A DNA stretch of 16,931 nucleotides from a virus (lineage: Duplodnaviria; Heunggongvirae; Uroviricota; Caudoviricetes), in the IMG/VR virus record IMGVR_UViG_3300029095_000223; one strand, 5' to 3'. Positions 1 through 16,705 of the stretch are shown here, piece by piece; the first letter of the stretch is position 1, and every line of letters begins with the position of its first letter. Position numbers and translations under genes: made by a program. The notes under the pieces were generated by a model, which was not told the DNA's origin, did not search any database, and was given only the letters and a program-made list of their open reading frames with translations.

Positions 1-117
1 TATCACAGCACCGGACTGCTCACCGGATGTCATGGTGGCTGACGTTCCCATGTACCCGCGTATCGTTTCATCGGCGCAGGCAATGGCAGCATCGAACAGG
101 TTATCGAAATCAGCCAC
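1..117 (-). CDS. Lambda-like head-tail joining protein FII, N-terminal 39 codons (gene runs off the window start)
   Basis: Reverse-complement of 1-117 translates VADFDNLFDAAIACADETIRGYMGTSATMTSGEQSGAVI, matching the lambda gpFII N-terminus as I recall it. Apparent GTG start at 117, 11 nt after the FI stop. Partial. Confidence 0.7.
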   Translation of the reverse strand, partial: MADFDNLFDAAIACADETIRGYMGTSATMTSGEQSGAVI

Positions 118-128
118 AGCGCCTCCCG

Positions 129-524
129 TTATTGCATTCTGGCCAGGCCGCGCTCTGTCATTTCAGCTGCCACACCGGCAGAGACACGGAACGCCGTTCC
201 CGGCAGCACAAATGCCACAGCCTCATCCCGCGTGGCGTGAAGTGCATCAGTATGCAGCGTCACCAGTGCCACAACCGTGACCAGATCAGCCGTATCAGTC
301 ACGGTATCCGGCTGCGCTGATACAACCTCATTTTCATGTCCGGTCAGCACATTTTCCGGGCTGAGAGGGGTCTCCTGACCGGCAGTGTCGCCCGTGTCAT
401 CAAGCTCTTCTTCCAGCTCTGCCACACGGAGCGCCAGTTTTTCTTTCGTCCCCGTCAGGCTGATATCACGGTTCAGTTGTTCACCCAGCGAGCGGAGACG
501 GGCAATCAGTTCATCTTTCGTCAT
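129..524 (-). CDS. Lambda-like DNA packaging protein FI
   Basis: ORF-track protein from internal Met (MTKDELIARLRSLGEQLNRD...TERGLARMQ, 131 aa) matches lambda gpFI from memory. GGAGGAG Shine-Dalgarno upstream of the ATG at 524. Position immediately downstream of E as in lambda. Confidence 0.85.
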   Translation of the reverse strand: MTKDELIARLRSLGEQLNRDISLTGTKEKLALRVAELEEELDDTGDTAGQETPLSPENVLTGHENEVVSAQPDTVTDTADLVTVVALVTLHTDALHATRDEAVAFVLPGTAFRVSAGVAAEMTERGLARMQ

Positions 525-565
525 GGACTCCTCCACAGAGAAACAATGGCCCCGAAGGGCCATGA

Positions 566-1591
566 TTACGCCAGTTGTACAGACACGAACTCATCAGGGT
601 CAGCCAGCAGCATCAGCGGTGCTGACTGAATCATGGTGAACTCACGCGCCGGGTCGCCGGTGGTCACCCAGTTTTTCGGGTAACGGGCAGAGGCGTTAAT
701 GCCTTCGCGCTGTGCGTCCGCATCCTGAATGCAACCATAGGTGCGCAGACCGCGTGCCTGAGTGTTCCCCAGCACCATCGTGTTGTCCGGCAGGAAGTTC
801 TTTTTGACGCCGTTTTCCACGTACTGTCCGGAATACACGACGATGGCCACATCGCCATACATTCCCTTATAAGACACCGCTTTGCCCAGGTCTTTTACCG
901 CTGTCTCCAGCTCGGAATGAGAGCCGCGACGGGTATCCAGCTTCTCCCTGACGGCCTTGAAGGAACGGAACAGCGCCCAGCCTTTCGGATCAAACACGAT
1001 GATATTCACCACACCGCTGGCGTTCAGCGCGTAGGCTTCGATATCGTCGGTCGGGTCATACGTGGACTTGTCACGCTTGCTCCACTCCGTGCCGCCGGAC
1101 TGCGTGATGTTATTCGCCGCACTGCGGCCCATATCCACCTCAACCGGATCGAAGGCTTCACCGGTCATGGTGTATTTGCCCTTAAGCACGGCAGAAACTG
1201 CCTGCATCTCTTCGACCTGGGCAATCGCCAGATTTTCATCCAGCATATTCTGCCGAATAATACGGCGACGACGGTAAGCCGGGTCAGCCAGGTTCTGCGG
1301 ATCTTCATCCGGCAGGCGACGCAGGGTCATCTGCGGATTCACCTCATGCTTGGGTTTGACATAACCCGGCGTAAATTCAGAGGTGGAGCCGCCACGGGAT
1401 CGGATAACCTCACCGGAAACAATCGGCGAAACGTACAGCGCCATGTTTACCAGTCCCGGAATTTGTGAGAGATAGACTTTTTCCGTGGTGAAAGGATAGG
1501 TTTCACGGAAAAACAGGCGCAGAAACAGCGGATCGAACTTAAAGTGATGCTGGGTCGATGCCAGTAATTCTGCAGTTGTATATACAGACAT
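566..1591 (-). CDS. Lambda-like major capsid protein E
   Basis: 341-aa translation (MSVYTTAELLA...EFVSVQLA) is near-identical along its length to lambda gpE as recalled. ATG confirmed at 1589-1591. Confidence 0.95.
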   Translation of the reverse strand: MSVYTTAELLASTQHHFKFDPLFLRLFFRETYPFTTEKVYLSQIPGLVNMALYVSPIVSGEVIRSRGGSTSEFTPGYVKPKHEVNPQMTLRRLPDEDPQNLADPAYRRRRIIRQNMLDENLAIAQVEEMQAVSAVLKGKYTMTGEAFDPVEVDMGRSAANNITQSGGTEWSKRDKSTYDPTDDIEAYALNASGVVNIIVFDPKGWALFRSFKAVREKLDTRRGSHSELETAVKDLGKAVSYKGMYGDVAIVVYSGQYVENGVKKNFLPDNTMVLGNTQARGLRTYGCIQDADAQREGINASARYPKNWVTTGDPAREFTMIQSAPLMLLADPDEFVSVQLA

Positions 1592-1603
1592 AAATTATTT
1601 CCA

Positions 1604-1626
1604 TAAAAAAAGCCGCACAGGCGGCC
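1604..1626 (-). terminator. GC hairpin plus U7 tract (minus-strand sense) about 10 nt upstream of the E start codon; terminator-like or RNA-processing element
   Basis: Seen in sequence: plus-strand aaaaaaa-gccgc-acag-gcggc; on the minus strand the hairpin is followed by TTTTTTT. I believe the same element exists between D and E in lambda. Confidence 0.4.
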
Positions 1627-1655
1627 TTTGTTGATGAAGGGGAAGATTAAACGAT

Positions 1656-1827
1656 GCTGAAAGGGCAGTGTTTCCCAGCGCCCTTCCTGGTATGCGGATT
1701 CTTTCGGGAGATAGTAATTGGCATCCGCCCATTCAACGGCGGTCTGTGGCTCCGGCCTGAACAGTGAGCGAAGCCCGGCGCGGACAAAATGCCGCAGCCT
1801 GTTAACCTGACTGTTCGATATATTCAC
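1656..1827 (-). pseudogene. Terminase large subunit (gpA) N-terminal remnant, first about 57 codons, fused out of frame to the tail end of the D/E intergenic sequence
   Basis: First 57 aa of ORF 1447-1827 (MNISNSQVNRLRHFVRAGLRSLFRPEPQTAVEWADANYYLPKESAYQEGRWETLPFQ) match the lambda gpA N-terminus. After that the frame reads through ...ATC GTT TAA (like the last codons of lambda D) and into E in a non-E frame. Start overlaps the Nu1 stop as in lambda. Confidence 0.8.
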
Positions 1828-2347
1828 TCAGCAACCCCGGTATCAGTTCATCCAGCGCGGCTGCCTTGTTCATGGCTTTGATGATATCCCGTTTCAGGAA
1901 ATCAACATGTCGGTTTTCCAGTTCCGGAAAACGCCGCTGCACCGACAGGGGGATCCCGTCGAGAATACTGGCAATTTCACCTGCGATCCGCGACAGCACG
2001 AAAGTACAGAATGCGGTTTCCACCACTTCAGCGGAGTCTCTGGCATTTTTCAGCTCCTGTGCGTCGGCCTGTGCACGCGTAAGTCGGTGGCGTTCGTACT
2101 CAATAGTCCCTGGCTGGAGATCTGTCTCGCTGGCCTGCCGCAGTTCTTCAACTTCCCGGCGCAGCTTTTCGTTCTCAATTTCAGCATCCCTTTCGGCATA
2201 CCATTTTATAACGGCGGCAGAGTCATAAAGCACCTCATTACCCTTGCCACCGCCTCGCAGAACGGGCATTCCCTGTTCCTGCCAGTTCTGAATGGTACGG
2301 ATACTCGCACCGAAAATGTCAGCCAGCTGCTTTTTGTTGACTTCCAT
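1802..2347 (-). CDS. Terminase small subunit Nu1 (NohA/NohD-like)
   Basis: 181-aa translation (MEVNKKQLADIFGASIRTIQNWQEQGMPVLRGG...SEYIEQSG) matches lambda gpNu1 almost residue for residue from memory. Correct distance from cosN. Confidence 0.9.
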   Translation of the reverse strand: MEVNKKQLADIFGASIRTIQNWQEQGMPVLRGGGKGNEVLYDSAAVIKWYAERDAEIENEKLRREVEELRQASETDLQPGTIEYERHRLTRAQADAQELKNARDSAEVVETAFCTFVLSRIAGEIASILDGIPLSVQRRFPELENRHVDFLKRDIIKAMNKAAALDELIPGLLSEYIEQSG

Positions 2348-2524
2348 TGTTCATTCCACGGCCAAAAACAGAGAAAGGAAACGACAGAGGCCCAAAAGTT
2401 CGTTTTCAGCACCTGTCGTTTCCTTTCTTTTCAGGGGGTATTTTAAATAAAAACATTAAGTTACGACGAAGAAGAACGGAAACGCCTTAAACCGGAAAAT
2501 TTTCATAAATAGCGAAAACCCGCG

Positions 2525-2536
2525 AGGTCGCCGCCC
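2525..2536. other. cosN cohesive-end site (12-nt, GGGCGGCGACCT on the minus strand), flanked by cosB (about 2348-2524) and the cosQ/phage right end (about 2537-2640)
   Basis: Reverse-complement of 2511-2536 is GGGGCGGCGACCTCGCGGGTTTTCGC, the lambda left-end sequence. Reverse-complement of 2537-2549 is CCGACAGGTTACG, the lambda right end. Surrounding sequence matches the lambda ends as recalled. Confidence 0.85.
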
Positions 2537-2735
2537 CGTAACCTGTCGGATCACCGGAAAGGACCCGTAAAGTGATAATGATTATCATCTACATATCACA
2601 ACGTGCGTGGAGGCCATCAAACCACGTCAAATAATCAATTATGACGCAGGTATCGTATTAATTGATCTGCATCAACTTAACGTAAAAACAACTTCAGACA
2701 ATACAAATCAGCGACACTGAATACGGGGCAACCTC

Positions 2736-2969
2736 ATGTCAACGAAGAACAGAACCCGCAGAACAACAACCCGCAACATCCGCTTTCCTAACCAAATGAT
2801 TGAACAAATTAACATCGCTCTTGAGCAAAAAGGGTCCGGGAATTTCTCAGCCTGGGTCATTGAAGCCTGCCGCCGGAGACTGTGCTCAGAAAAAAGAGTT
2901 TCTTCTGAAGCAAACAAAGAAAAGAGTGACATTACTGAATTGCTCAGAAAACAGGTCAGACCAGATTGA
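2736..2969 (+). CDS. Small basic prophage protein, YnfO/YlcI-like (DUF3950-type) candidate
   Basis: 77-aa ORF MSTKNRTRRTTTRNIRFPNQMIEQINIALEQKGSG... with GGGG Shine-Dalgarno 7 nt upstream. Placement next to the Nu1 homolog resembles ylcI/ynfO in K-12 cryptic prophages. Family assignment is from memory and unverified. Confidence 0.55.
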   Translation: MSTKNRTRRTTTRNIRFPNQMIEQINIALEQKGSGNFSAWVIEACRRRLCSEKRVSSEANKEKSDITELLRKQVRPD

Positions 2970-3026
2970 AGCAATTTAGATAATCGTGCAGACTACGCCC
3001 CCTCATATCACATGGAAGGTTTATCT

Positions 3027-3437
3027 ATGGATCAGGTAGTCATTTTTAAACAAATATTTGATAAAGTTCGAAACGATTTAAACTATCAATGGTTTTATTC
3101 TGAGCTAAAACGTCACAATGTCTCACATTACATTTACTATTTAGCCACAGAGAATGTTCATATTGTATTAAAAAATGATAATACAGTGTTATTAAAGGGC
3201 CTAAAAAACATTGTGTCTGTCAAATTTTCAAAGGATAGGCATCTTATAGAAACGACCTCTAATAAGCTGAAATCCAGAGAGATCACATTTCAGGAATACA
3301 GAAGAAACCTTGCTAAAGCAGGAGTTTTTCGGTGGGTTACAAATATCCACGAACAAAAAAGATATTACTATACCTTTGATAATTCATTACTATTTACTGA
3401 AAGCATCCAGAAAACTACACAGATCTTACCACTCTAA
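3027..3437 (+). CDS. YdfO-like prophage protein (DUF1398-type), 136 aa
   Basis: ORF 3012-3437; the second ATG at 3027 has a GGAAGG Shine-Dalgarno 7 nt upstream and gives 136 aa ([24 protein letters not shown]...). Identity to K-12 YdfO is by recollection of size and context only. Confidence 0.6.
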
Positions 3438-3588
3438 ACCATAACGTCCGGCTTCTCTCACTCCTGAGCCGGACTGCATTGGTTTAATAAAAACCATCAA
3501 CAATGGTGATTTAGATATTCGGAACCATTCAAATATAACAAAACCCCGTAAAAACGAGGTTTATGGATAAATTTTATTATTGAATACA

Positions 3589-3762
3589 TCAGATTAAATT
3601 AATCTTGACATCATAGCTTTCAAGACCCGTCATTTTTTCCCGTGCGGTAAACTGAATACTGGTAACTTCTTTCCCGGTCTTTTTCTTAAGTTCAATAATT
3701 TTTTTTGTTATATATTCAGAAATATCTGCTTCTGCTTTTGTTTTTAAGTTTTCAATATTCAT
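3589..3762 (-). CDS. gnsB: GnsB (Gns-family small protein), 57 aa
   Basis: Not in the ORF track (below its length cutoff). Reverse-complement of 3589-3762 translates MNIENLKTKAEADISEYITKKIIELKKKTGKEVTSIQFTAREKMTGLESYDVKINLI, clearly homologous to GnsA/GnsB. TGA stop at 3589-3591. Confidence 0.8.
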   Translation of the reverse strand: MNIENLKTKAEADISEYITKKIIELKKKTGKEVTSIQFTAREKMTGLESYDVKINLI

Positions 3763-3933
3763 CATTTCCTCTTTTAGTCTGTTATGACTTTCCAGTTACA
3801 CAGTAAGTCGATTATATGGTGCAAACGTGTAAAAGATAAGATGAAACATCGCAATAATCAACATACGATAGTCTAAATTTTACACAAACAGACAAAGAGA
3901 ATTTTCCTGAATTATCAATGCAATAGCATCAAA

Positions 3934-4089
3934 TCAACTCAAGAGCCTTATTGCTGCTTCCAGAATTTCTTCTGAAGTAACATGTCGATCCGCGGCTACA
4001 TAAATGACTTTATGATCTCCGGTCAGAGATGGAAACCCTGCGGCCATTACAGTAAGGTGTGTTTTTTCGCCATTTGGATATTCACGCAT
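3934..4089 (-). CDS. YnfN-like small protein (51 aa from Met40; alternative starts at 4164 giving 76 aa or 4110 giving 58 aa)
   Basis: ORF 3934-4206; the 51-aa form MREYPNGEKTHLTVMAAGFPSLTGDHKVIYVAADRHVTSEEILEAAIRLLS has a GGAG about 13 nt upstream. Size and position (between gnsB and cspI) fit K-12 ynfN as recalled. Start is uncertain. Confidence 0.5.
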   Translation of the reverse strand: MREYPNGEKTHLTVMAAGFPSLTGDHKVIYVAADRHVTSEEILEAAIRLLS

Positions 4090-4205
4090 GATGGTGTTAA
4101 CTCCAGTCATCGCTGGCACTACCACTGCTGGTTCAGAGTTAAAAAAAACTATGATTTTTTTCATGATGTTACCGTAGTATGTGAGTATCCATCGAATAGA
4201 CACCA

Positions 4206-4228
4206 AGCAAAAAAGCTCCCGAAGGAGC
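4206..4228 (-). terminator. Candidate intrinsic terminator downstream of cspI
   Basis: Plus strand aaaaaaaa-gctcc-cgaa-ggagc: on the minus-strand RNA a 5-bp GC stem with a 4-nt loop is followed by a U-rich tract. Lies about 200 nt downstream of the cspI stop. Short stem, so weak. Confidence 0.35.
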
Positions 4229-4435
4229 CTTCATTTTCACTTTTTTAAATCCAACGACAGACGGCTGGCATTTAAGTATTGTGAAATATTATCAAATGTA
4301 ATCATCATTGATTTACAAAAGATACATTTTGCCCCGAAAGGATTCATGTCAGAAACATCAAAAGATGATGTTCTATACTGGGAACCATGACAACACGGGC
4401 ATCTAAAGTGAATATGGTTTGTAATATTGTCTACC

Positions 4436-4648
4436 TCAAAGCGCCACTACATGAACAGCGGCAGGACCTTTAGGTCCGTTCTCAATACCAAATTCAACTT
4501 CCTGATTCTCAGTTAATGTTTTGAAATCGTTGCTCTGAATTGCTGAGAAATGGACAAACACATCTTTGCTGCCATCTTTCGGCGTGATGAAACCAAAACC
4601 TTTTTCAGGGTTAAACCATTTCACTAAACCAGTCATTTTGTTAGACAT
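4436..4648 (-). CDS. cspI: Cold-shock protein CspI (CspA family)
   Basis: 70-aa translation [70 protein letters not shown] has the CspA-family cold-shock domain motifs. AAGG Shine-Dalgarno upstream and a long AT-rich leader. Confidence 0.9.
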
Positions 4649-5010
4649 AATTATTACCTTTTGAAGAAATTAGCCCTTGGGCAGAATGGTCCGAAAAAAA
4701 ATATCAGAGAGAAAAACCAACAAGGAAATCTCAAGAGGTACAAATAATAAAATTATAACAATGACTGCTTCAGATAAATTTGTAACAAACCAGAACACCA
4801 TTAACGCATGATTAACCACCCATAGCAAGGATTACTTTTGTAAAGAAAAACACAGCAATGAAAGAATAGTTTTATTTATTAATAAAACGTGTCATTCTGA
4901 TTAAGACCTTTTATCTTACCCTTAAGATTTCAGGAATTTTGGCTCATGGAAGAGTCCTTTTTATTTAAATTTTACATTCCGCGATGTAAATGTTCCGATT
5001 TAATATTACC

Positions 5011-6034
<1,024 letters not shown>

Positions 6035-6038
<4 letters not shown>

Positions 6039-6346
6039 AGATATTTATGATGAGGACGCTCGTGCTTATTGGCAGGATTTTCAATCTTAAAGGAGTACTG
6101 ATGCTGCAGATAAGACTCAACTTTTTCTGACAATTTTTCTGCTACTTCCAGGAAGACTTGCCGGACGCTCCTTCTGGCTGCTGCCTCATAAAACTCCAGC
6201 GCAGCTCCTTCAACACGGTCCATGGCGACATCCAGGTCAAAAATTTCACCGTCAAAGCGTTCTTTGTCCTGTAAGGCTACAGTTACCGTAACTTTATTCT
6301 CAAAATTACGGACTCCTTTCACAACCAGTTCATAGTCTTGAGTCAT
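6035..6346 (-). CDS. YdfR-like protein (DUF1327-type) within the lysis cassette
   Basis: 103-aa ORF (MTQDYELVVKGVRNFENKVTVTVALQDKERFDGE...) between holin and lysozyme, overlapping the lysozyme start by 4 nt. Name assigned by context and size from memory. Confidence 0.65.
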
Positions 6347-6350
6347 TGGA

Positions 6351-6566
6351 TTACTCTCCTCTCGCAGCCTTACGCCTGTCTTCTTTAATCTTGAAATAAA
6401 GATTTGTCAGATACGTCAGCAGGCCAAAAACCAGGCTACCCAGCACACCGATTGCAGCCCACTGTGACGGAGTTACTTTATCGAGTAACTGCAATGCCCA
6501 GAAACCAGCATTACCCGCCGATGTGCCATAGGCAACACCTGTTGTTAACTTATCCATTGATTTCAT
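6351..6566 (-). CDS. Holin (EssQ-like), 71 aa
   Basis: From Met26 of the track ORF ([31 protein letters not shown]...[32 protein letters not shown]): two hydrophobic segments and a charged C-terminus. GGTGAGG Shine-Dalgarno before the ATG at 6566. First gene of the lysis cassette. Confidence 0.75.
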
Positions 6567-6785
6567 ATCCTCACCCCGATGTACACGGATGGTGCAATAT
6601 GTTTGAAAAGATCGGAGTCTACGGGGTAGTTTTGACAGCACACGTTGTTCTCAACGGCGCTAAAAAAACATACACATTAAAAATGTGGGTAATTATTTTG
6701 AAAGAAAGTCATATATAAAATAATAATACGAGAAATGTTTTCATATTTAGTGTACTGTATACGGCCATTTATACAGGAAAAGCCT

Positions 6786-6956
6786 ATGTCAGAACGTAAA
6801 AACTCAAAATCACGCCGTAATTATCTCGTTAAATGTTCCTGCCCAAACTGCACCCAAGAGTCAGAACACAGTTTTTCAAGAGTACAAAAAGGTGCCCTTT
6901 TGATCTGCCCTCATTGCAACAAAGTATTCCAGACAAATCTTAAAGCTGTAGCCTGA
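6786..6956 (+). CDS. Small zinc-ribbon protein (56 aa; CxC-x2-C ... C-x2-C), possibly the YnfU-type putative zinc-binding protein
   Basis: From the internal ATG at 6786 with an AGGAAA Shine-Dalgarno 6 nt upstream: MSERKNSKSRRNYLVKCSCPNCTQESEHSFSRVQKGALLICPHCNKVFQTNLKAVA. Four-Cys arrangement typical of zinc ribbons. Name recollection uncertain. Confidence 0.5.
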   Translation: MSERKNSKSRRNYLVKCSCPNCTQESEHSFSRVQKGALLICPHCNKVFQTNLKAVA

Positions 6957-7018
6957 TTGATTTTATTAGTAACAAGTATTTTTTATATTTTAATAATATA
7001 TTTAAAGCAGATAATAAA

Positions 7019-7038
7019 AAACCCGCCTGAGCGGGTTT
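7019..7038 (-). terminator. Intrinsic terminator (minus-strand sense; A-tract on the other side gives possible bidirectional function)
   Basis: aaacccgc-ctga-gcgggttt hairpin (8-bp stem). On the minus strand it is followed by TTTTTATTAT. Lies downstream of cspB (minus) and of the zinc-ribbon gene (plus). Confidence 0.5.
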
Positions 7039-7319
7039 GAGATTGTGGTGCTTTTTGTGGGAGTCATCCACTTACGCACTTTGTTTTGCCATGCCAGCAG
7101 TTAGCTTCTGCTGTAAAACTATTCATGCAGCAAACCTGCACTTCACCACAATGGTTAGCATACTTTTCCTGATTAAGATTTTGCCAAATATGCTAGCCAT
7201 TGTTTCATGTATTGGACCTCCTTACTTTTTATTAAAGAGATCCAATATTCACTACTCTGTCCGTATCTCTACTCAGGCATCAGCCTTCTTCGTTATCGTA
7301 TACAGACGAGCGATGAATT

Positions 7320-7535
7320 TTAATCAGTAATGATGACATTTGCTGCTGCAGGACCTTTAGCACCACTCTCTATAGAGAAGGTAACCTTTTGACCTTCAAA
7401 TAAGGTTCGATAATTATCATTCTGAATCGCAGAAAAATGCACAAACACATCTTTACTACCATCAACAGGAGAAATAAAGCCGAAACCTTTATCAGCGTTA
7501 AACCATTTTACTAAACCAGTCATTTTATTTGACAT
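7320..7535 (-). CDS. cspB: Cold-shock protein CspB (CspA family)
   Basis: 71-aa translation [71 protein letters not shown]. Divergent from cspF as in Qin. Confidence 0.9.
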
Positions 7536-7835
7536 TCTACATTCCTTAACTTGAGCCTTTCGGCATAAATGGTTTGCATAACAGAAACGACTTCGTACTT
7601 AATTGGAGAGACTCAAAGAAGGAATAAGTGAATAACACCTGAAATGAGAACTGCTTTAGTAAACTACTTCGTATATCGTCTGTTCTTCAAACCGACGCAA
7701 TCATTAACGCATAGTTGAACATATGAAGCAATGTTTATTTTAGACATCCAGCCATCTTCAACCCCATCAAAAAACTATAGCTTTCTTCAGGAACGTGTGT
7801 ATAGTGCGCCAAGTTATCAGTATTAAGGAATTTTT

Positions 7836-8048
7836 TTGTCCCGTAAAATGACAGGAATTGTCAAAACCTTTGACGGCAAAAGCGGCAAGGGTCTTATCAC
7901 CCCATCCGATGGTCGTATCGATGTCCAGCTTCATGTTTCAGCGCTCAATCTCCGCGATGCAGAAGAAATTACCACCGGATTACGCGTGGAATTTTGCCGG
8001 ATAAATGGTCTGCGTGGCCCTTCAGCTGCCAATGTTTACCTTTCATGA
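7836..8048 (+). CDS. cspF: Cold-shock protein family member CspF
   Basis: 70-aa translation [70 protein letters not shown]: divergent CspA-family member as recalled for CspF/CspH. Divergent from cspB across an approximately 300-bp promoter region. Confidence 0.9.
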
Positions 8049-8102
8049 GCTATATTAAAGCTTTAATTTCAGGCCCCATCGGATCACACATGGAGAGTTT
8101 TT

Positions 8103-8192
8103 ATGAATAACCCCGTCTGTCTTGATGACTGGTTGATTGGCTTTAAAAGCTTATGCTGTACTTTGGCCGTAATAGCTCTGCTAATAATATAA
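8103..8192 (+). CDS. Candidate 29-aa small hydrophobic protein (unannotated small ORF)
   Basis: ATG at 8103 preceded by GGAGAG at 6-nt spacing; [32 protein letters not shown] at 8190-8192. Only sequence-level support. Confidence 0.25.
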
Positions 8193-8340
8193 TAAGCAGA
8201 CTCATTGTGTTTAGGGACATTGTACTGGAAGAAAACATTTTAAACATCAGGCAAATAACCAAGTCACCAGCTAAATAATAAGTTAACAGACATGAGTCCC
8301 GGGATGAGATTCAACATTACCATTGCCCCATTTAAAGCAC

Positions 8341-8364
8341 AAAACCCGCTCATCAGCGGGTTTT
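8341..8364. terminator. Bidirectional-looking intrinsic terminator hairpin; candidate tR'-like terminator for the Q-dependent late promoter and/or cspF terminator
   Basis: aaaacccgct-catc-agcgggtttt: perfect 10-bp stem with a 4-nt loop. CTACTTTTTC follows on the plus strand; a U-rich run follows on the minus-strand RNA. Confidence 0.5.
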
Positions 8365-8409
8365 CTACTTTTTCTTAACGTCGGGTATACAAAGCCCATC
8401 GTTGAAAAA

Positions 8410-8438
8410 ATTTTATCCATATTTTTTGAAAAATGCAA
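8410..8438 (-). promoter_or_regulatory. Sigma-70 promoter, candidate Q-dependent late promoter (PR'-like)
   Basis: Minus-strand sequence TTGCAT-17 nt-TAAAAT (-35 at 8433-8438, -10 at 8410-8415), about 30 nt downstream of the Q stop, with the hairpin about 40-60 nt further on. This is the canonical position of PR'/qut/tR' in lambdoid phages. Confidence 0.45.
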
Positions 8439-8469
8439 ACATCATGTCGCCATCTTCAGCAAAAATCAT

Positions 8470-9222
8470 TTATCTCGTCACCTTCCTCAATTGCGCTTCC
8501 GCGTATGCTTCTTCCTGCCAGCACTTTGTTACCAGTTTACCAATGACGTCCGCATACCCCTTATACCACTGATAATCGGTCAGGTCTGGTACCAGCTTCT
8601 GGACATGACGTCGTGCCAGCGTGGTCGGTAAACGACTAAACCGGTTTCCATTACAACGCCCACAAATCTTATATACCGGTACGCCATGAAACCGGGTTCT
8701 TTTTTCATCCAGAACAATCCCTTTACCCTTACACCCTCTGCACGCTGTGCTGGCTTCGCCCTTACCATGGCAATGCTGACATAGTTCCTTCACCCATTCT
8801 TCCTTGATTACAGATTCCCCGCGTCTGTAGTGTTTCACCACTTCGCGCAATACATTATAAAATCCCGTACCTGAACAATGCTCACAGCGAGCCTTACTTG
8901 CCGCAGACCTGGAGTAATCAGCAAAGGCAAAACTCACGAGGTAAGGAATAATCTGTAACCGGATTTCTTCACTCAATTTGTTCAATGTCGGGTTATCCAG
9001 TGCCATCGCGTAATTTAGCAGGCCTTCAATCGCAAACTGAGGGTCCTGAACACCAACTTTTGCCAGAAATAAGGCCAACCCAAGTGGTGCTTTCGACTGC
9101 ACCATCCCCTGCGCTGCCATTACATCCGTAATTGTTAAACAACCGGTGCCTGTCGCTGGAGCGTCATCGCTCAATTTTGGAGATTTTGGGGAGTAATATT
9201 TTGGTAAGGCTTCAAGGTTCAT
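8470..9222 (-). CDS. Late-gene antiterminator Q (QuuQ-like), 250 aa
   Basis: From Met11 of the track ORF (MNLEALPKYYSPK...), with a GGAGAA Shine-Dalgarno before the ATG at 9222. Cys-rich zinc-binding motifs (CEHCSGTG, CQHCHGKG, CRGCKGKG, CGRCNG) typical of Q antiterminators. Lies upstream of the lysis cassette. Confidence 0.85.
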   Translation of the reverse strand: MNLEALPKYYSPKSPKLSDDAPATGTGCLTITDVMAAQGMVQSKAPLGLALFLAKVGVQDPQFAIEGLLNYAMALDNPTLNKLSEEIRLQIIPYLVSFAFADYSRSAASKARCEHCSGTGFYNVLREVVKHYRRGESVIKEEWVKELCQHCHGKGEASTACRGCKGKGIVLDEKRTRFHGVPVYKICGRCNGNRFSRLPTTLARRHVQKLVPDLTDYQWYKGYADVIGKLVTKCWQEEAYAEAQLRKVTR

Positions 9223-9235
9223 GCTCGTTCTCCAC

Positions 9236-10324
9236 TTACGCCAGTACGCCAATTGCCAGCGCGCGATCGATAAAACGAAATATCAGCTCCAGTTGGGAGC
9301 CATACTTATCTTCAAATGCCACTGTATCCGTATGCAGCTCGTTGTGATGCTTTCTGCACAAAGGCAACACAAAGAGATCATGTGCTTTTGTTCCCATTCC
9401 GCCCTGCCCGTGACCAATCAGATGATGCGGATCGTCGGCTGGCATACCGCAGCAAGCACACGGCTGTGTCTTAACCCAACGTGTGTATTTCTCCTTAACC
9501 CAGCGGCGACGTTTAGGCAGCTTCATGAAAGATTCCGGAGACTCTGGATCAACGGTGATGCTTACCACCGTCTTTTCCTGTGGTGATTTTTGTTGCTGGT
9601 GGGCGTAAGGCAACGGTGCAAGATTTTTTGTGCGTTGTTTCAATATGCTGGTGGCGGTCTGCTCTCCCGGTACGATGTCGCTTTCGCGGTACACCGAGCA
9701 GATTTTTTCCGCTGGTAATCCCAGCGAACGACGCGATACAGCCTCAGGTAGTGCATCCACCACCTGATTGCAGACCGCCCACCAGGATAATTCAGCCAAA
9801 GATAATTCCCGCTCCTGCGTACCGCTTATTGCGTGACGGATGACGTCAATCACCCATGCTGTCAGATTTTGTTGAGCAAGCAGCTCCAGTGATTCCGATG
9901 TCTGGTCACGCAGTTGGTTGTCGCAGTGCCAGCACAACACCATTGCGCCGGTACCATAACGGTGAATGACTGTTTCAGTGTGATGGTAATCGCCATTAGG
10001 CCACTGGCAGGATGTAACATGACGTAATAGCCAGTCGGACAATGCGCCAACGCCGCCAGCAGCACGAATCACCCGTTCGTTACTAAAAAACGGCAGCAAT
10101 GTTTTGTCTTCCGCCAGCGGCTGGCGAACGGCAGGAACGACTCCGGATGGCAGATTACGCATGCTTTTTGGTTCCGGTTCCACCAGCACTCGAGGATTAT
10201 GAAATATCTGTATGGATTCACGGCCCGGCTTAAGGACCACCAGCCCAAGCTCAGGCACCAGAACAGGTCTAAGTAATACCCGCACGTTACCTCCAGATCC
10301 GTTGCTGGAAAGTGCGGGACGCAC
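9236..10324 (-). CDS. YdfU-like prophage protein (DUF968-type; C-terminal Cys/His-rich putative metal-binding region); start codon uncertain
   Basis: 362-codon open frame beginning with GTG at 10324 (the track renders it as M); internal Met candidates exist. C-terminal ...CACCGMPADDPHHLIGHGQGG...CRKHHNELH motif. Overlaps the Q start by 13 nt. Name by context and size from memory. Confidence 0.6.
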   Translation of the reverse strand: MRPALSSNGSGGNVRVLLRPVLVPELGLVVLKPGRESIQIFHNPRVLVEPEPKSMRNLPSGVVPAVRQPLAEDKTLLPFFSNERVIRAAGGVGALSDWLLRHVTSCQWPNGDYHHTETVIHRYGTGAMVLCWHCDNQLRDQTSESLELLAQQNLTAWVIDVIRHAISGTQERELSLAELSWWAVCNQVVDALPEAVSRRSLGLPAEKICSVYRESDIVPGEQTATSILKQRTKNLAPLPYAHQQQKSPQEKTVVSITVDPESPESFMKLPKRRRWVKEKYTRWVKTQPCACCGMPADDPHHLIGHGQGGMGTKAHDLFVLPLCRKHHNELHTDTVAFEDKYGSQLELIFRFIDRALAIGVLA

Positions 10325-10565
10325 GTGGTGGGCGTTCGGAATAAGGCAGCCTGACAGAGATTATCCAGTGCCGATAGTCGAGACTGAGAGCTTTCTTAAC
10401 CTCGAACCCGCGCCTGCGGTAAGAATGAATCAGCCATTCGGCCTGTTCTGCAGTGCATGGAGGGTGCTGGAACCATTCAGACTTGAATGCGTGAGAATAC
10501 CGCCCGTGCGTGCAGGCAAGAACGGGCGAATTATCAGAATTGTAATATTTTGCGTTGCGTGCCAT
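10287..10565 (-). CDS. Hypothetical 92-aa ORF overlapping the 5' end of ydfU in another frame; may be a frameshifted N-terminal part of a larger gene or a separate small gene
   Basis: ORF-track entry MARNAKYYNSDNSPVLACTHGRYSHAFKSEWFQHPPCTAEQ...; same strand as its neighbours, ends 38 nt inside the ydfU frame. No recognisable motif. Confidence 0.3.
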   Translation of the reverse strand: MARNAKYYNSDNSPVLACTHGRYSHAFKSEWFQHPPCTAEQAEWLIHSYRRRGFEVKKALSLDYRHWIISVRLPYSERPPRASRTFQQRIWR

Positions 10566-10631
10566 CGGTTTTCTCCGGTGGCACGGTGTTACTCAGCGGG
10601 AGTTCAGCCCCGCGCAAGATTGTAGATGAGT

Positions 10632-10883
10632 TTATTCTCCTGAAAAAGCAGAAAAGCCAGCTTTTATTCCGATCTCTTTCAATGCCTGTAATGAAGTGAC
10701 AAACTCACCTTCGCGCAAGATAAATCCGTCCGTGACCCGAGCATCCACAAAATTAATTAACGCAGCCCCATTCTTTCGCAAACACATAATGCGGTAATGA
10801 CTAACAAGATTTCCATTTTCAACGCACACAGCATAGAGGCCATCTTCACAAAAAATTTTACGCAGTTCTTCGATGTTCATCAT
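10632..10883 (-). CDS. Rem-like prophage protein (83 aa)
   Basis: 83-aa ORF MMNIEELRKIFCEDGLYAVCVENGNLVSHYRIMCLRKNGAALINFVDARVTDGFILREGEFVTSLQALKEIGIKAGFSAFSGE. Position between ydfU and hokD and length match K-12 rem as recalled. Confidence 0.65.
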   Translation of the reverse strand: MMNIEELRKIFCEDGLYAVCVENGNLVSHYRIMCLRKNGAALINFVDARVTDGFILREGEFVTSLQALKEIGIKAGFSAFSGE

Positions 10884-10998
10884 CAGAATCCTTCCGGATA
10901 ATTAGCTCTCCCCTTTAAGGGACCATCCCTCTTATCCCTGCGCGCTACTTAAGTATTTTTGATTCTATTCCGGCACCGTCCAGAACTTCAAACGCGTT

Positions 10999-11031
10999 GA
11001 AAATAAAAACAAAAACCCGCCGAAGCGGGTT
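10999..11031 (-). terminator. Intrinsic terminator of the relB-relE-hokD operon
   Basis: Minus-strand RNA has an aacccgc-uucg-gcggguu hairpin followed by UUUUUGUUUUUAUUUU, about 70 nt downstream of the hokD stop. Confidence 0.6.
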
Positions 11032-11099
11032 AAGTGCGGGTGCGTTGAGGATGCCTGCCACATCAGAGGTGGCGAGGGATTTCTCCCCCGCCGGGTCTC

Positions 11100-11255
11100 T
11101 TACTCCTCAGGTTCGTAAGCTGTGAAGACAGCGACCTCCGTCTGGCCGGTTCGGATTCGTACCTCGCAGAGGTCTTTCCTCGTTACCAGTGCCGTCACTA
11201 TGACGGTTAAACAGATGACGATCAGGGCGATTAACATCGCCTTTTGCTGCTTCAT
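11100..11255 (-). CDS. hokD: Hok-family membrane toxin HokD (RelF), 51 aa
   Basis: Not in the ORF track as a minus-strand gene. Reverse-complement of 11100-11255 translates MKQQKAMLIALIVICLTVIVTALVTRKDLCEVRIRTGQTEVAVFTAYEPEE, then TAA. Sits 71 nt downstream of relE. Confidence 0.9.
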   Translation of the reverse strand: MKQQKAMLIALIVICLTVIVTALVTRKDLCEVRIRTGQTEVAVFTAYEPEE

Positions 11256-11326
11256 AGCCTGCTTCTCCTGTCAACGCAAAGCAGAAGTGTCACCTTCGGT
11301 GCGAAACAGAGATGTCATGCTTTGGT

Positions 11327-11614
11327 TCAGAGAATGCGTTTGACCGCCTCGCTATATACTTCCGAGCGTTCTCTTTTCCCAACAGAAATCACGAAAACGA
11401 CAACTTTCTCGTCTATAACCTGGTATACAAGGCGATAGCCTGAAGACCGGAGCTTAATCTTGTAACAATCAGGCATACCACGGAGCTTGTTTGCTTCAAT
11501 CCGGGGTGACTCAAGTACTTCAACCAGCTTCTTTTTCAACTGTTCACGTACCGTCGAGCCCAGCTTTCGCCATTCCTTTAGTGCCCGCTCGTCAAAATCC
11601 AGAAAATACGCCAT
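11327..11614 (-). CDS. relE: mRNA interferase toxin RelE
   Basis: 95-aa translation MAYFLDFDERALKEWRKLGSTVREQLKKKLVEVLESPRIEANKLRGMPDCYKIKLRSSGYRLVYQVIDEKVVVFVISVGKRERSEVYSEAVKRIL matches E. coli RelE as recalled. Start overlaps the relB stop. Confidence 0.95.
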   Translation of the reverse strand: MAYFLDFDERALKEWRKLGSTVREQLKKKLVEVLESPRIEANKLRGMPDCYKIKLRSSGYRLVYQVIDEKVVVFVISVGKRERSEVYSEAVKRIL

Positions 11615-11853
11615 CAGAGTTCATCCAGCGTCACACGTACTGGCTTAGGATTACGAAGCCGTTCTTTCACTATCTCCACAAGTTCAGCATCTTCATCACT
11701 CAGGAGTGTCTGTTTGAACGGCAAGCGTTCATTGTCAGCGATATACTCGAGCATGAGACGAAGCGCTTCAGAAGGAGTTACACCCATTTTTTCAAGCGCG
11801 GCGTAAGAACGCGCTTTAAGTTCATCGTCAATACGCAGGTTAATGCTACCCAT
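11614..11853 (-). CDS. relB: Antitoxin RelB
   Basis: 79-aa translation MGSINLRIDDELKARSYAALEKMGVTPSEALRLMLEYIADNERLPFKQTLLSDEDAELVEIVKERLRNPKPVRVTLDEL matches RelB as recalled. Operon order relB-relE-hokD. Confidence 0.95.
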   Translation of the reverse strand: MGSINLRIDDELKARSYAALEKMGVTPSEALRLMLEYIADNERLPFKQTLLSDEDAELVEIVKERLRNPKPVRVTLDEL

Positions 11854-11864
11854 GTCTTACACCT

Positions 11865-11890
11865 CTTGTAATTACAAATGTCATTACAAG
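11865..11890 (-). promoter_or_regulatory. relBE operator/promoter region (relO-like palindrome)
   Basis: cttgtaat-tacaaatgtc-attacaag: inverted repeats immediately upstream of the relB start (11853), consistent with the TTGTAAT-repeat operator bound by RelB2-RelE. Confidence 0.6.
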
Positions 11891-12183
11891 TATCGCACTA
11901 CAACATGCTTAGGGCAAGTCACGAAGGAAGTCAGAAAGTAGTCGTAAGAACGGTGATCACTGTCCGCTTTGTGCCAGGAGCAGCCATTGCTAAGTCCATC
12001 CTGTATTGTGCAGGTCAGCTCGTTTTTAAAGAGTCCGGCCATCATCTTACTGGTACAGACACCATATACTTTGTGACGGTCAGGCTACATATGCACAACT
12101 CAACTTATTCATCTATTTTTTGCTTTAGCATGTCAGTGTTGCTTTCTCGTCGGCGGGTGAGCGGTGACCTGAACTGTCGATAA
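11878..12183 (+). CDS. YdfV-like hypothetical protein (101 aa); coding status doubtful
   Basis: 101-aa ORF divergent from relB whose ATG lies inside the rel operator. Size and position match K-12 ydfV as recalled. No recognisable motifs, no strong Shine-Dalgarno. Confidence 0.4.
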   Translation: MSLQVSHYNMLRASHEGSQKVVVRTVITVRFVPGAAIAKSILYCAGQLVFKESGHHLTGTDTIYFVTVRLHMHNSTYSSIFCFSMSVLLSRRRVSGDLNCR

Positions 12184-12335
12184 AGGAACGTAACACGTTT
12201 TATGCAACACCCGCATGCGGCAGAAAATTATTGCCGAACGTTTACCCCTGTCAACAAGCTTTACTTTCTGAGGCGCGCCAGCCCGCGAGGAAAACAATCT
12301 GAACATCAAACAATTAATGACACAAGAAATACGAT

Positions 12336-12362
12336 TAAAGATTTTTTTGTGCATGCCGATAG
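12336..12362 (+). promoter_or_regulatory. Sigma-28 (FliA) class-3 flagellar promoter for flxA
   Basis: TAAAGATT-11 nt-GCCGATAG versus consensus TAAAGTTT-N11-GCCGATAA. About 25 nt upstream of the flxA Shine-Dalgarno (AAAGGAG) and start. Confidence 0.65.
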
Positions 12363-12385
12363 TGCTTTTTTAAAAGGAGAAATCT

Positions 12386-12718
12386 ATGTCTGTCACAATT
12401 CAGGGAAATACCTCAACCGTTATTTCAAACAACTCCGCCCCGGAAGGAACATCAGAAATAGCCAAAATCACAAGACAAATTCAGGTGCTGACTGAAAAGC
12501 TTGGGAAAATCTCATCGGAAGAGGGGATGACGACACAGCAGAAAAAAGAAATGGCTGCATTGGTACAGAAGCAAATTGAAAGCCTCTGGGCTCAACTGGA
12601 GCAGTTGTTAAGGCAGCAGGCAGAGAAAAAGAATGAAGACGCGACAGTTCAGCCTGATAAAAAAGAAGAGAAAAAAGACGATACAAATACCGCTGGCACC
12701 ATTGATATTTACGTCTAA
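12386..12718 (+). CDS. flxA: FlxA (FliA-regulated protein)
   Basis: 110-aa translation MSVTIQGNTSTVISNNSAPEGTSEIAKITRQIQVLTEKLGKISSEEGMTTQQKKEMAALVQKQIESLWAQLEQ... matches FlxA as recalled. Strong Shine-Dalgarno. Confidence 0.9.
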   Translation: MSVTIQGNTSTVISNNSAPEGTSEIAKITRQIQVLTEKLGKISSEEGMTTQQKKEMAALVQKQIESLWAQLEQLLRQQAEKKNEDATVQPDKKEEKKDDTNTAGTIDIYV

Positions 12719-12732
12719 GTGACAGCCGTATT

Positions 12733-12759
12733 GTGGCCCTCATCGGGCCACTTTTCGCC
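12733..12759 (+). terminator. Intrinsic terminator after flxA
   Basis: gtggccc-tcatc-gggccac hairpin followed by TTTTCGCC, 15 nt downstream of the flxA stop. Confidence 0.55.
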
Positions 12760-13154
12760 ATCAGCCTTTTCTTTAAAGACATATTATCTTTGTATCATTT
12801 CTGATAGTTAACATTACAAGATATAAGTAATGGACGCACTCCCAATTAGTCTATTTAAATCGCCACGAGTTTAACTGACAACCCATGATCAATTATGAAT
12901 TGCAACTATTTCTGTAGTCACTTTTGTGGGGACAGTCCACAAAACTGCCAACTTCCGCTTCTTGCTCTTAGCGGACATTAGCATAGGCTATTTACCATAA
13001 CGCCTCATTACGCGCACCGCCCAGACTGACTCAGCGCGTTTCTGGCATATCCCCGGTAAAACAAGTAACAAACCACCCGAAAATGAACACCAGAAACGCG
13101 ACTTAAGAATCTACCCTATGAATGGATATGCACTCAACCGAATCGATCTTGGTT

Positions 13155-14468
13155 TCAATCTTTTTTATCGGGATCAGGCTTCTTTTTAGGTAACTTCGGG
13201 GGCTTAACTTGCTGATGACTTTGCGTTCGGCGCGTAAGCCAGGGATGGTCAGCTTTAGGTTTAACATAGTATTTTGAGCGTAAATCAATACGGGCATTAT
13301 CCACTCGTTCATGGACACTCTTTTCATCATCCAGTGGTATAGGCTCCGGGCCATCAACATACTTTTCCCAGCCCAGCGCTTTCCCGTCATACAGAACGTT
13401 AATTTCACCGTCAAAGTTCTCGCATACAGTAACAACCGAATGCCTAAGTCGATATCCCCGGCCCTCACTGCGTACCTGAAACGCACTGCTTTTGTACTGG
13501 AAAGTGAGATTTTTAGACAGAACGCGCTTCGCCTGTAGGCTGAAGATATAACCCAGTTCCTCTTCAGAATGGTGCACATCAAGATGAGCATTATCAGTAG
13601 TACGAGGCGACGTAGCGAACCGGTTGTTATAGGCTTCAATAAAGGTCGGCAACCATGCATTTGCTGTTTCAATATCACTGATATTCTGAAGCCGCATTTC
13701 TTTGACCAGCCTGTCCTGTAGTGTCTGATTGGCGCGCTCTACCCGCCCTTTTGCCTGCGGGCTGTTGGCATGGATTGGCTCGATGCCCAGTGTCTTTATC
13801 GCACGAGTGAACTGGGTCAGCTCACCTTCCCGCTCTGGGTTATTTACCCTGAATATACTGTGTCTATCAGAGTAGAGAGCGAGCGGTACGCCATGATCAT
13901 TAAGGTAACCCCGGAGGGTTTCCATGTAAGCCCGGGTTGTTTCAGCAGGCACAAAACGCAACGCCATCAACGCACTGGTGGCATCATCAATGAAAACGAT
14001 CAGTGTACATCTGGGGCCTCGATTTTCAAACCAGTCATGAGGTGAGCCATCAATCTGGATCAGTTCACCGTAAGATGGTCGTCGCATGCGGCGTTGATAT
14101 ATACGGGCAATTTTACGACGGCGTTCACGCCATAACCCCTCTTCTATCATCCACTTTCTGAGAGTTTCAACGGATAAAGATAAACCGTGTATCTCGCGCA
14201 ATTTTTCGCACGCAAACGTAGGTCCAAAATCAGCGTAACGGCCTTTGAGGAGTGAAATTACTGTTGCTCTGAATTCAGTAGAAAAGGAATTATTAGGACG
14301 CTTTCCACGTCGGTGGGAAACCAGACCAGAAGGCCCTTCATTTCTATACCGTTGCACCAGACGTTTAACCTGCCGAATAGAAATGCCAATGCGTGCCGCA
14401 GCTTGTTCCTGAATAATCTGAAGTCGGTGGAGTTCCTTATGACTCATCGTAACAGTCTCTTTGATCAT
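13155..14468 (-). CDS. DDE transposase/integrase-core protein with N-terminal helix-turn-helix (IS481/ISNCY-type), 437 aa
   Basis: ORF with N-terminal HTH-like region (MSHKELHRLQIIQEQAAARIGISIRQVKRLVQRYRNEG) and an rve-like core (LIQIDGSPHDWF...LIVFIDDATS...LYSDRHSIF...ANSPQAKGRVERANQTLQ). Basic C-terminal tail. ATG at 14468 with a GGGGG Shine-Dalgarno upstream. Family assignment is from motif recognition only. Confidence 0.85.
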   Translation of the reverse strand: MIKETVTMSHKELHRLQIIQEQAAARIGISIRQVKRLVQRYRNEGPSGLVSHRRGKRPNNSFSTEFRATVISLLKGRYADFGPTFACEKLREIHGLSLSVETLRKWMIEEGLWRERRRKIARIYQRRMRRPSYGELIQIDGSPHDWFENRGPRCTLIVFIDDATSALMALRFVPAETTRAYMETLRGYLNDHGVPLALYSDRHSIFRVNNPEREGELTQFTRAIKTLGIEPIHANSPQAKGRVERANQTLQDRLVKEMRLQNISDIETANAWLPTFIEAYNNRFATSPRTTDNAHLDVHHSEEELGYIFSLQAKRVLSKNLTFQYKSSAFQVRSEGRGYRLRHSVVTVCENFDGEINVLYDGKALGWEKYVDGPEPIPLDDEKSVHERVDNARIDLRSKYYVKPKADHPWLTRRTQSHQQVKPPKLPKKKPDPDKKD

Positions 14469-14686
14469 GAAAAATCCCCCAGAGAATTGTCTGGGGACAT
14501 TTTAGAATGGTTCAAAGGGGACATTACAGCTTGGTGTTAACAATAGCCTGCTTCTCCGTGCCTTTCGGCACGTAAGAGGCTAACCTACATGTGTCTAGCA
14601 TGAAATTGGCCTCAGATTAATGTTAAGCGTCTTGCAGGACGCGTAATGTTAACTGGGGCTTTTCTCTATCTGCCTTTGGTGTTCGT

Positions 14687-14726
14687 GCCCGAGGCAGATA
14701 GCCTCAAGCACCCGCCGTGATTCTAC
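14687..14726. repeat. 40-bp imperfect direct repeat, copy A (pairs with 16706-16745)
   Basis: gcccgaggcagatagcctcaagcacccgccgtgattctac; 32/40 ungapped identity with copy B, including a 14-nt exact core cctcaagcacccgc. Confidence 0.55.
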
Positions 14727-14951
14727 AAAAACATTACCCACCTTTCCAGCAATTCACAACAACTCCATGCAAATAGTAAGTAGAATAATAAGTTATTAGT
14801 ATTAGCAATTTACTTAGTTTCTAATTTGTGCCAATGATTTTCATTTTTGCATGAAAAATACCTTAACATTTTATATTTACTTACTATTTGTAAGCCCCAT
14901 CAGTTCTTTCTGATGGCGGCTGGTATTTCAGTTCCAGATATAGTATATGCT

Positions 14952-15980
14952 TTACGCCTTAATAGGGTTAATCACATTTCCGCTATCCGTACCATAGTAT
15001 TTTTTTGTAGTCATGCCTTGTTTATAATAATCATTTAACAGTTTGAGAAAGTTTCTTCCTTGCCTCTCATCTTCTATGACTAATTTACCATGCTCATTGG
15101 TCTTAAACTCTTCGTTCTGAAACATTTTTAGCACATCATTCATAGCTTGAACATCATTCTTTTCCAGAACCGTATGGTTACCTTTCTCAGCGATATGAGT
15201 GAGAATTTTTCTCAGTGATGGCTTATGAAGAATAGCTTGTTCAATAACATCTAAACCTTCAATAAGATCAAGTTCTTTAATTGTATTTAATGTTTTTTGT
15301 GCAGCTTCTGTAAACTCAACCTCCAAGCCTACAATAGCCTCAAAACTTTTCTTATGAAATACATAAAATTGATCTTTTATATAAACACAATCGATTTTGT
15401 CATCAAAATTGACTGCGCTGCCATCAAATGATCTTAACTCTTTATCTGTTTTATCAAACAAAGCGAATACGCGCTGAGTCATATTTTGTGGTTCATTTGT
15501 TGTGACTTTCCCCCTGCTGATTTTTCGGAAAGAATAAGTGACGTCAGCCCCCTTTTGGACTTTAATACAATAGGCCCACAAATCATTCTGAACCTCAGCA
15601 AGAGAGGTAAGTACAACTGGTTTATCATTCTTTATATCGTTATTAATAACTTTTGAAAACGATATCGCGTTATTCATAGCATAGGCATAAATCTTATTAT
15701 CAATATCATCATCAATAACAGTATACTTTTTCATCACAATATCATCTTTCGAAGCATGAGAAATAATCTGGTTTGATAAAGTATACTTAAAAAATTTAGC
15801 AATATCTGGAGCGATTGGAGCTTTAATGATTTTAAAATCGAATTTATCAACAACTCTTGCGGTTCTACTCATACCCGCTTTAAGATGTCTAGTAATGAAA
15901 TACAACGATATTTTCGCCGCATCATCATCCTTAAGTTGCTCAGCATACTCTAATAATTCTTCAAGCTTTAACATTTTCAT
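14952..15980 (-). CDS. Uncharacterised soluble protein (342 aa), second gene of an AT-rich two-gene operon; candidate defence-system component (KwaB-like by architecture only)
   Basis: Long clean ORF in very AT-rich DNA, with Lys/Asn/Asp/Ile-biased composition. Its ATG overlaps the upstream gene's TGA (ATGA at 15977-15980). No catalytic motif recognisable by eye. Confidence 0.8.
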   Translation of the reverse strand: MKMLKLEELLEYAEQLKDDDAAKISLYFITRHLKAGMSRTARVVDKFDFKIIKAPIAPDIAKFFKYTLSNQIISHASKDDIVMKKYTVIDDDIDNKIYAYAMNNAISFSKVINNDIKNDKPVVLTSLAEVQNDLWAYCIKVQKGADVTYSFRKISRGKVTTNEPQNMTQRVFALFDKTDKELRSFDGSAVNFDDKIDCVYIKDQFYVFHKKSFEAIVGLEVEFTEAAQKTLNTIKELDLIEGLDVIEQAILHKPSLRKILTHIAEKGNHTVLEKNDVQAMNDVLKMFQNEEFKTNEHGKLVIEDERQGRNFLKLLNDYYKQGMTTKKYYGTDSGNVINPIKA

Positions 15981-16591: not shown

Positions 16592-16705
16592 AACTACCCC
16601 ACAGCCTACACGTCTAGTATTTTATGTTATTTCGAATAATTATGCATCAGATTACCATCCTACAATTGTGCATAAAACGAGCATTTTGCTGATTTTTCTG
16701 CGGAT

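Follow-up and report, generated by a model that had tools for sequence, protein, structure and literature searches.

A defective lambdoid prophage that keeps a cos site and the gene for the small terminase subunit after the gene for the large subunit has been broken raises the question of whether such a remnant can still be moved by another phage. This question is posed by a 16,931-bp stretch of DNA (the window; virus record IMGVR_UViG_3300029095_000223), for which an original prediction held that intact cos and Nu1 could allow the element to be packaged in trans by the terminase of a superinfecting lambdoid phage, resulting in helper-dependent mobilization of its morons and accessory cassette. 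We compared the cos region with that of lambda, identified the element and its relatives, and considered the polarity of packaging and the size of the unit that could be packaged.

The cos site and the adjacent nohA gene

When the reverse-complemented window was aligned by blastn with the circularized lambda junction, window positions 2898..1656 matched lambda 48141..48502/1..882 with 98.07% identity over 1244 columns (E = 0). The subsites were placed by published definitions, with the exception of the cosQ coordinate, and eleven elements were aligned, namely lambda, the window, the Qin and DLP12 prophages of E. coli K-12, and seven deposited lambdoid phage genomes. A complete lambda-type cos is enclosed within 2348-2640 on the minus strand, where the original prediction had placed it, and is followed by nohA.

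2560-2566, minus strand: cosQ heptamer GGGTCCT, the packaging-termination subsite; identical to lambda and invariant in 11 of the 11 aligned elements
2520-2541, minus strand: cosN, 22 bp, TTACGGGGCGGCGACCTCGCGG; identical to lambda 48498-17
2525-2536, minus strand: 12-nt cohesive end GGGCGGCGACCT within cosN
2487-2519, minus strand: I2 spacer with static bend, 33 bp (lambda bp 18-50); sequence and length identical to lambda
2472-2487, minus strand: R3 of cosB, the critical TerS binding site (lambda bp 50-65); identical to lambda
2447-2472, minus strand: I1, IHF site and intrinsic bend segment (lambda bp 65-90); one difference from lambda
2451-2463: IHF-like core inside I1, between R3 and R2
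2413-2428, plus strand: R2 of cosB, inverted relative to R3 and R1 (lambda bp 109-124); 16-mer identical to lambda
2372-2387, minus strand: R1 of cosB (lambda bp 151-166); 16-mer identical to lambda
2345-2347, minus strand: ATG of Nu1
1802-2347, minus strand: nohA, full-length homologue of Nu1 (small terminase subunit), 181 aa; Pfam Phage_Nu1, 336 bits

We take cosQ to be lambda 48473-48479, as reportedly defined by Wieczorek & Feiss in 2001, and its distance to cosN, which it precedes by about 30 bp, is the same as in lambda. The 7-bp length of cosQ and its conservation have been stated elsewhere (PMC4669245). A 238-bp fragment, lambda 48446-182, holds cosQ, cosN, and cosB, with I2 (bp 18-50) being essential and I1 comprising bp 65-90 (PMC4856287), while R3 has been assigned to bp 50-65 with TerS contacts at 55-63, and R2 and R1 have a common 16-bp sequence, inverted in R2 (PMC9026076).

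The prediction that cosN and the flanking lambda ends are intact was borne out, as there were zero differences from lambda 48167 through bp 72. Within cosB, the order is R3-I1-R2-R1, with R2 inverted and the IHF-like core between R3 and R2, and alignment of these sites to lambda, which had been proposed as a check, revealed identical R3, R2, and R1 and one polymorphism in I1. Since neither cosN nor the R sites carry a mutation, the observation that the original prediction had named as speaking against itself was not made. Seven differences were found in lambda bp 1-190 (73 A>G, 102 T>C, 134 G>A, del138, 139 G>A, 145 T>G, and 176 T>G), none of which is in cosQ, cosN, I2, R3, R2, or R1; six are located between subsites and one (73) in I1. 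The 73 A>G change (window 2464) lies 1 bp outside the IHF-like core, and the same base is present in seven of the nine other non-lambda elements, phage isolates included. Furthermore, phage PhiR49_1 carries the full set of seven variants, and single ones recur in other lambdoid phage genomes that have been deposited. A search for the 12-mer of cosN at up to one mismatch gave 1 match in 48.9 kb, where 0.14 would be expected by chance. An Rfam scan of the cos region gave no match, and promoter and terminator counts in window 1500-3100 were at or below shuffle expectation.

Nu1 was likewise retained intact, as had been claimed, with 179 of 181 residues identical to lambda Nu1 and only two substitutions (A75T and L132I). 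Residues 1-74 are the same as in lambda, including the recognition helix (17-24), the wing (31-39), E24, and K35; the DNA-binding domain is identical, and the recognition helix encoded next to cos matches the R sites. The PGAP call for this homologue is nohA (WP_000453587.1). Judged by sequence, this cos is intact, and cos and nohA together appear competent and of lambda packaging specificity; cleavage of the site by a helper terminase of that specificity is plausible.

A less decayed Qin prophage without a large terminase subunit

The window belongs to the Qin cryptic lambdoid prophage of E. coli and represents a variant in which decay has gone less far than in K-12. The window differs by 1 base from the chromosome of E. 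coli DP051 (NZ_CP156034.1), the sole mismatch (T vs C) being at position 5541, inside rrrQ, and therefore comes from DP051 or from a genome almost identical to it. In DP051, the integration site has a truncated ydfJ (ydfJ') on one side and rspB on the other, and the annotated gene order is nohA, ynfO, ydfO, gnsB, cspI, rzpQ, rrrQ, cspB/F, ydfT, ydfU, rem, hokD, relBE, and flxA; both site and order agree with the K-12 annotation. Identity to K-12 Qin is 99.878% over window 1819-13339 (11.5 kb), and window 1656-16931 matches, at 99.935%, a full-length Qin-type prophage at the same locus of E. coli DA33135 (L013, 1-40121). In the latter, A, W, portal, protease, D, E, and the tail genes are all present, providing a complete terminase and a head and tail gene set, and the NohA protein is identical to that of the window. 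The Qin of DP051, the Qin of K-12, and the full-length prophages thus form one young lineage at different stages of deletion, and the variant documented here connects the K-12 remnant with the full-length Qin-type prophages. In 304 genomes, a single place covers 80% or more of the window, so that 'Qin' is not always cryptic-looking.

The Qin cos and nohA in the window are an ordinary remnant that was already known, as cos-nohA of Qin and cos-nohD of DLP12 are both annotated features of K-12. K-12 Qin (nohA-cos-ynfO, b1548-b4533) occupies the same ydfJ'/rspB site with the same gene order and has the same cos, with 2 differences in 357 bp. It has, however, undergone one larger deletion, which extends from 17 bp inside the 3' end of nohA to stfQ. 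In the window, nohA is instead complete, and 57 codons of A are still present together with E, FI, and FII. Unlike K-12 Qin, the window element also has intact int and xis, and it carries an ISNCY remnant and the Kiwa genes in place of ydfX-dicC.

The remains of the late region on the two sides of cos are as follows.

1656-1827, minus strand: remnant of gene A (large terminase subunit), first 57 codons; translation equal to lambda gpA 1-57, then diverging
1656-1660: deletion junction with 5-bp microhomology GCTGA; from blastn against the DA33135 prophage and junction sequences
566-1591, minus strand: gene E for the major capsid protein (341 aa), left isolated downstream of the deletion; Pfam Phage_cap_E, 236 bits
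129-563, minus strand: DNA-packaging protein gene FI; Pfam Packaging_FI, 171 bits
2736-2969, plus strand: ynfO (DUF3950), the gene nearest to cos on its right-end side; Pfam DUF3950 and annotation

The large terminase subunit is indeed destroyed, as the original prediction stated, with only gpA residues 1-57 left. The truncated gene (A') reads on into a 126-aa open reading frame (1447-1827) with an unrelated tail, which PGAP calls 'terminase, incomplete' and for which no Pfam match was found. The translocation ATPase and endonuclease domains of the large subunit are absent, and a functional terminase holoenzyme (Nu1 plus A) is not encoded. Compared with DA33135, 5183 bp are missing, comprising the rest of A, W, the portal gene, the S49 protease/scaffold gene, and nearly all of D. 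This loss of most of A through D is a recent deletion via illegitimate recombination at the 5-bp microhomology. E, FI, and FII come after the junction, and a second deletion took out the tail genes Z through J. On the other side of cos, the 5' part of ynfO lies inside the block that is homologous to lambda.

The two sides of the deletion junction differ in their relatives. Window 1-1660, which contains E and FI, is only 94.2% identical to DA33135, versus 99.94% on the right side, and shares 99.9-100% identity with the head genes of other strains, among them CE10 and SK1144. The mosaic histories of the two sides thus differ.

Packaging polarity and the size of the unit

TerS binds cosB and TerL nicks cosN, after which terminase stays on the cosB end as Complex I; this end is translocated into the prohead, the cosQ end is exposed to nucleases, and termination needs a downstream cosQ-cosN (PMC4669245, PMC4856287). 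It has also been reported that cos terminases need a second cos and that uncut, protruding DNA blocks tail attachment (PMC6687093). Because terminase stays on the cosB end and this end enters the prohead, packaging would run from 2536 toward nohA and window position 1. Window 2600-16931, with ynfO, ydfO, gnsB, cspI, the lysis genes, cspB/F, Q, relBE, hokD, and Kiwa, would thus lie on the unpackaged and unprotected side. In DP051, the packaging direction leads through ~9.3 kb of prophage left arm into ydfJ', ydfI, dcp, dgcZ, marRAB, and the lsr operon, and no second cosN (at up to one mismatch) was found within 55.6 kb downstream or 53.3 kb upstream. The DP051 flank on the packaging side (2383875-2421000; L014) includes marRAB, the lsr AI-2 operon (with an internal stop in lsrA), and a RelE/ParE toxin pair; hipBA is located just past a 48.5-kb reach.

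The int and xis genes are annotated as complete, and 11-bp direct repeats flank the element (L003, 9247 and 42278). An excised circle would be ~33.0 kb, that is, 68% of lambda. Lambda packages productively ~78-105% of its genome length, with ~78% being the lower limit for stable packaging and for length-dependent terminal cleavage at cos. The element offers neither two cos in the same orientation ~38-51 kb apart nor a replicating unit of 78-105% of lambda. Packaging by lambda has a polarity and requires a second cos at a suitable distance, so that a cos kept in place does not render the morons of the late region packageable; the step from one to the other, attractive as it is, is geometrically wrong. 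Packaging in trans by a helper, as originally predicted, therefore finds support in the intact cos and Nu1 of lambda specificity and in the precedents of Sp4/Sp14 and DLP12 discussed below. Helper-dependent mobilization of the morons and the accessory cassette by packaging is not supported, being weakened by the polarity, the lack of a second cosN over the distances searched, and the ~33-kb unit.

All defined cos subsites are the same as those of lambda in order, orientation, and spacing, and outside I1 also in sequence. In contrast to lambda, no large subunit, portal, protease, or decoration gene follows, and unlike in a lambda concatemer, the Qin cos is a single chromosomal copy. DLP12 (K-12 cos-nohD) and Sp4/Sp14 of E. 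coli O157 Sakai are likewise terminase-defective lambdoid prophages with a lambda-type cos, but they differ in integration site and flanking modules. Cos and nu1 of DLP12 are functional once recombined into lambda (PMC3945230). Sp4 is packaged despite having no intact terminase of its own, which its authors credit to the terminase of Sp14, which has the same cos (PMC2669165); Sp4 kept the large subunit and lost nu1 to an IS, the reverse of the window element. The cos-type PICIs (EcCICFT073-type) are helper-dependent and have cosQ and cosN nearly identical to lambda upstream of a gene for a wHTH protein. However, they have no cosB R sequences and encode Rpp, which redirects the helper TerS, whereas the window element has a canonical cosB, a true Nu1, and the architecture of a lambdoid prophage. 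Membership among the PICIs or satellites was rejected, as the neighbor of cos is Phage_Nu1 (336 bits) and not Rpp, cosB is present, and the size is ~33 kb versus ~10-15 kb.

Persistence of cos and nohA and their likely role during infection

The junction between A and D was found in 5 of 5426 complete E. coli genomes, and four of these five (SCZE5, ECJXMCRH7, XH993, and VTB96816v) have an additional in-frame deletion of 249 bp (83 codons) inside Nu1, corresponding to window 1861-2109, while their cos is still 100% identical. In SCZE5 (L018), this deletion is at 2351-2599, and the four genomes offer a snapshot of stepwise decay. The cos region, with its 2 differences per 357 bp from K-12, is not better conserved than Qin overall (0.12%). 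A composite probe of the 238-bp cos and 256 bp of gene E hit 4602 of the 5426 genomes (median, 2 places in each), and orphan or resident lambda-type cos sites are thus commonplace. As the prophage decays by deletion, the 750 bp of cos-nohA would simply not yet have been lost, and their retention looks passive. Selection for keeping cos was considered and found unsupported, as cos is no more conserved than the rest of Qin and siblings lose Nu1. The intact cos of both Qin and DLP12 in K-12, despite much heavier decay, could mean selection or gene conversion from infecting phages, although we regard this as a weak indication.

During lytic growth of a phage with lambda specificity, helper terminase and IHF would bind R3-I1-R2; the terminase would then nick cosN and remain bound to the end that carries cosB and nohA. 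From there, any packaging would enter nohA, cross the ~9.3-kb left arm of the prophage, and continue into ydfJ'-ydfI...marRAB...lsr. For lack of a downstream cos it would have no point of termination, and the side with cosQ and the morons would remain as a free double-strand end. Given this free end and unterminated packaging, the realistic consequence would be cos-stimulated homologous recombination, by which late-region genes of Qin would move into the infecting phage. Such recombination is the classical origin of the lambda-qin and lambda-qsr' hybrids, and cutting of the E. coli chromosome by lambda terminase was reportedly described by Kotani et al. in 1992. Recombination is stimulated when terminase cuts a prophage cos. 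In K-12, the cos-containing homology of DLP12 gave ~100-fold more lambda recombinants than the stf/tfa region of Qin or Rac, 10 of 19 recombination junctions adjoined cos, and recombinants with DLP12 nu1 were viable (PMC3945230). We infer that recombination into an infecting lambdoid phage is a much likelier route of transfer than packaging of the defective element as one unit. The recombination route requires a second homology beyond the morons, on their far side. If the Qin cos is cut in vivo, this would be relevant to the supply of genes from cryptic prophages to infecting phages via cos-stimulated recombination, and to the question of whether cos phages can move chromosomal flanks.

The account that joins these points, namely the cos-nohA of Qin, its passive retention, and cos-stimulated recombination in preference to unit packaging, is in our view probably correct. 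As a rival explanation, the element might excise, replicate, and be packaged from cos to cos by a superinfecting or co-resident lambdoid phage, as a 'proto-hitcher' carrying its morons and Kiwa. The cos and Nu1 of lambda specificity, the complete int and xis with the flanking 11-bp repeat, and the packaging of Sp4 by what appears to be the terminase of Sp14 would all agree with this, and defective prophages have been proposed as proto-hitchers (PMC11389934). We nevertheless consider it improbable, as the monomer is too short and a 66-kb dimer too long, part of Nu1 is lost in sibling genomes, and Qin, DLP12, and Rac of K-12 did not excise during lambda infection (PMC3945230). There is also no hijacking function such as Rpp, and with its ordinary cosB, the Qin cos would compete with the helper instead of redirecting it (PMC9026076). 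As for a co-resident phage, neither a second lambda-type E/FI nor a match to a 200-bp piece of lambda-type gene A was found in DP051 at the sensitivity of megablast, so that no close resident helper was detected at that sensitivity. The DLP12 remnant of DP051 is without nohD or cos, and a second lambda-type cos-like match is located elsewhere in the chromosome (2 places with the composite cos and E probe).

Alternatively, packaging could start from the orphan cos in situ and proceed in one direction, as in lambda docL or lateral transduction, filling a head with ~9 kb of prophage and ~39 kb of chromosome (ydfJ' to the lsr operon, including marRAB) and occasionally transducing this flank. Particles of lambda docL from unexcised single-cos prophages were reportedly described by Little and Gottesman in 1971 and by Sternberg and Weisberg in 1975, the subsites for initiation (cosN, I2, and cosB) are intact, and the polarity and the gene content of the downstream 48.5 kb are established. 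A downstream cosQ-cosN is lacking within 55.6 kb, however, and since DNA protrudes without a terminal cut and tails cannot attach (PMC6687093), infectious particles would be rare and reliant on adventitious trimming by nucleases, which makes this explanation very unlikely. We give a similarly slight chance to the related idea that the orphan cos is a fixed chromosomal entry for the terminase of an infecting phage, with directional encapsidation of the ~39-kb flank on the nohA side (ydfJ'-marRAB-lsr). The orphan cos might also give rise to a terminase-dependent chromosomal break that shapes recombination or the outcome between phage and host, and any such entry-point effect would, if true, be species-wide, because the composite probe matches most of the genomes. 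Least credible is interference with lambda-type phages, for which cos-nohA-A' would have been kept so that NohA and the 57-residue gpA fragment titrate terminase, or so that cos serves as a sink for terminase or as a suicide cut site. A Nu1-binding determinant lies in the extreme N-terminus of gpA, which the A' reading frame keeps, and the same prophage carries other defense cargo, Kiwa KwaA/KwaB. This explanation presupposes expression of the cos-nohA-A' genes in a repressed prophage, to which nothing points, and the siblings are without 83 codons of Nu1 and K-12 without A' altogether. Moreover, K-12 has two such cos sites and supports normal growth of lambda. Finally, DLP12 nu1 substitutes functionally for lambda nu1 (PMC3945230), which also argues against interference.

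Several accessory features of the prophage were also observed. The Kiwa anti-phage pair is complete, with KwaA at 15977-16591 (PADLOC, 337 bits) and KwaB at 14952-15980 (527 bits), both on the minus strand, and adjoins the ISNCY transposase remnant (13155-14468). Between this remnant and kwaB lies a sok antitoxin RNA (14542-14713, minus strand; Rfam 105.6 bits, gathering score 59) with no annotated hok, which may be an orphan hok/sok remnant. Leaders of the cspA-type thermoregulator (Rfam RF01766) are located at 4409-4794 (113 bits) and 7304-7696 (159 bits), both on the minus strand, upstream of the prophage cold-shock genes cspI and cspB.
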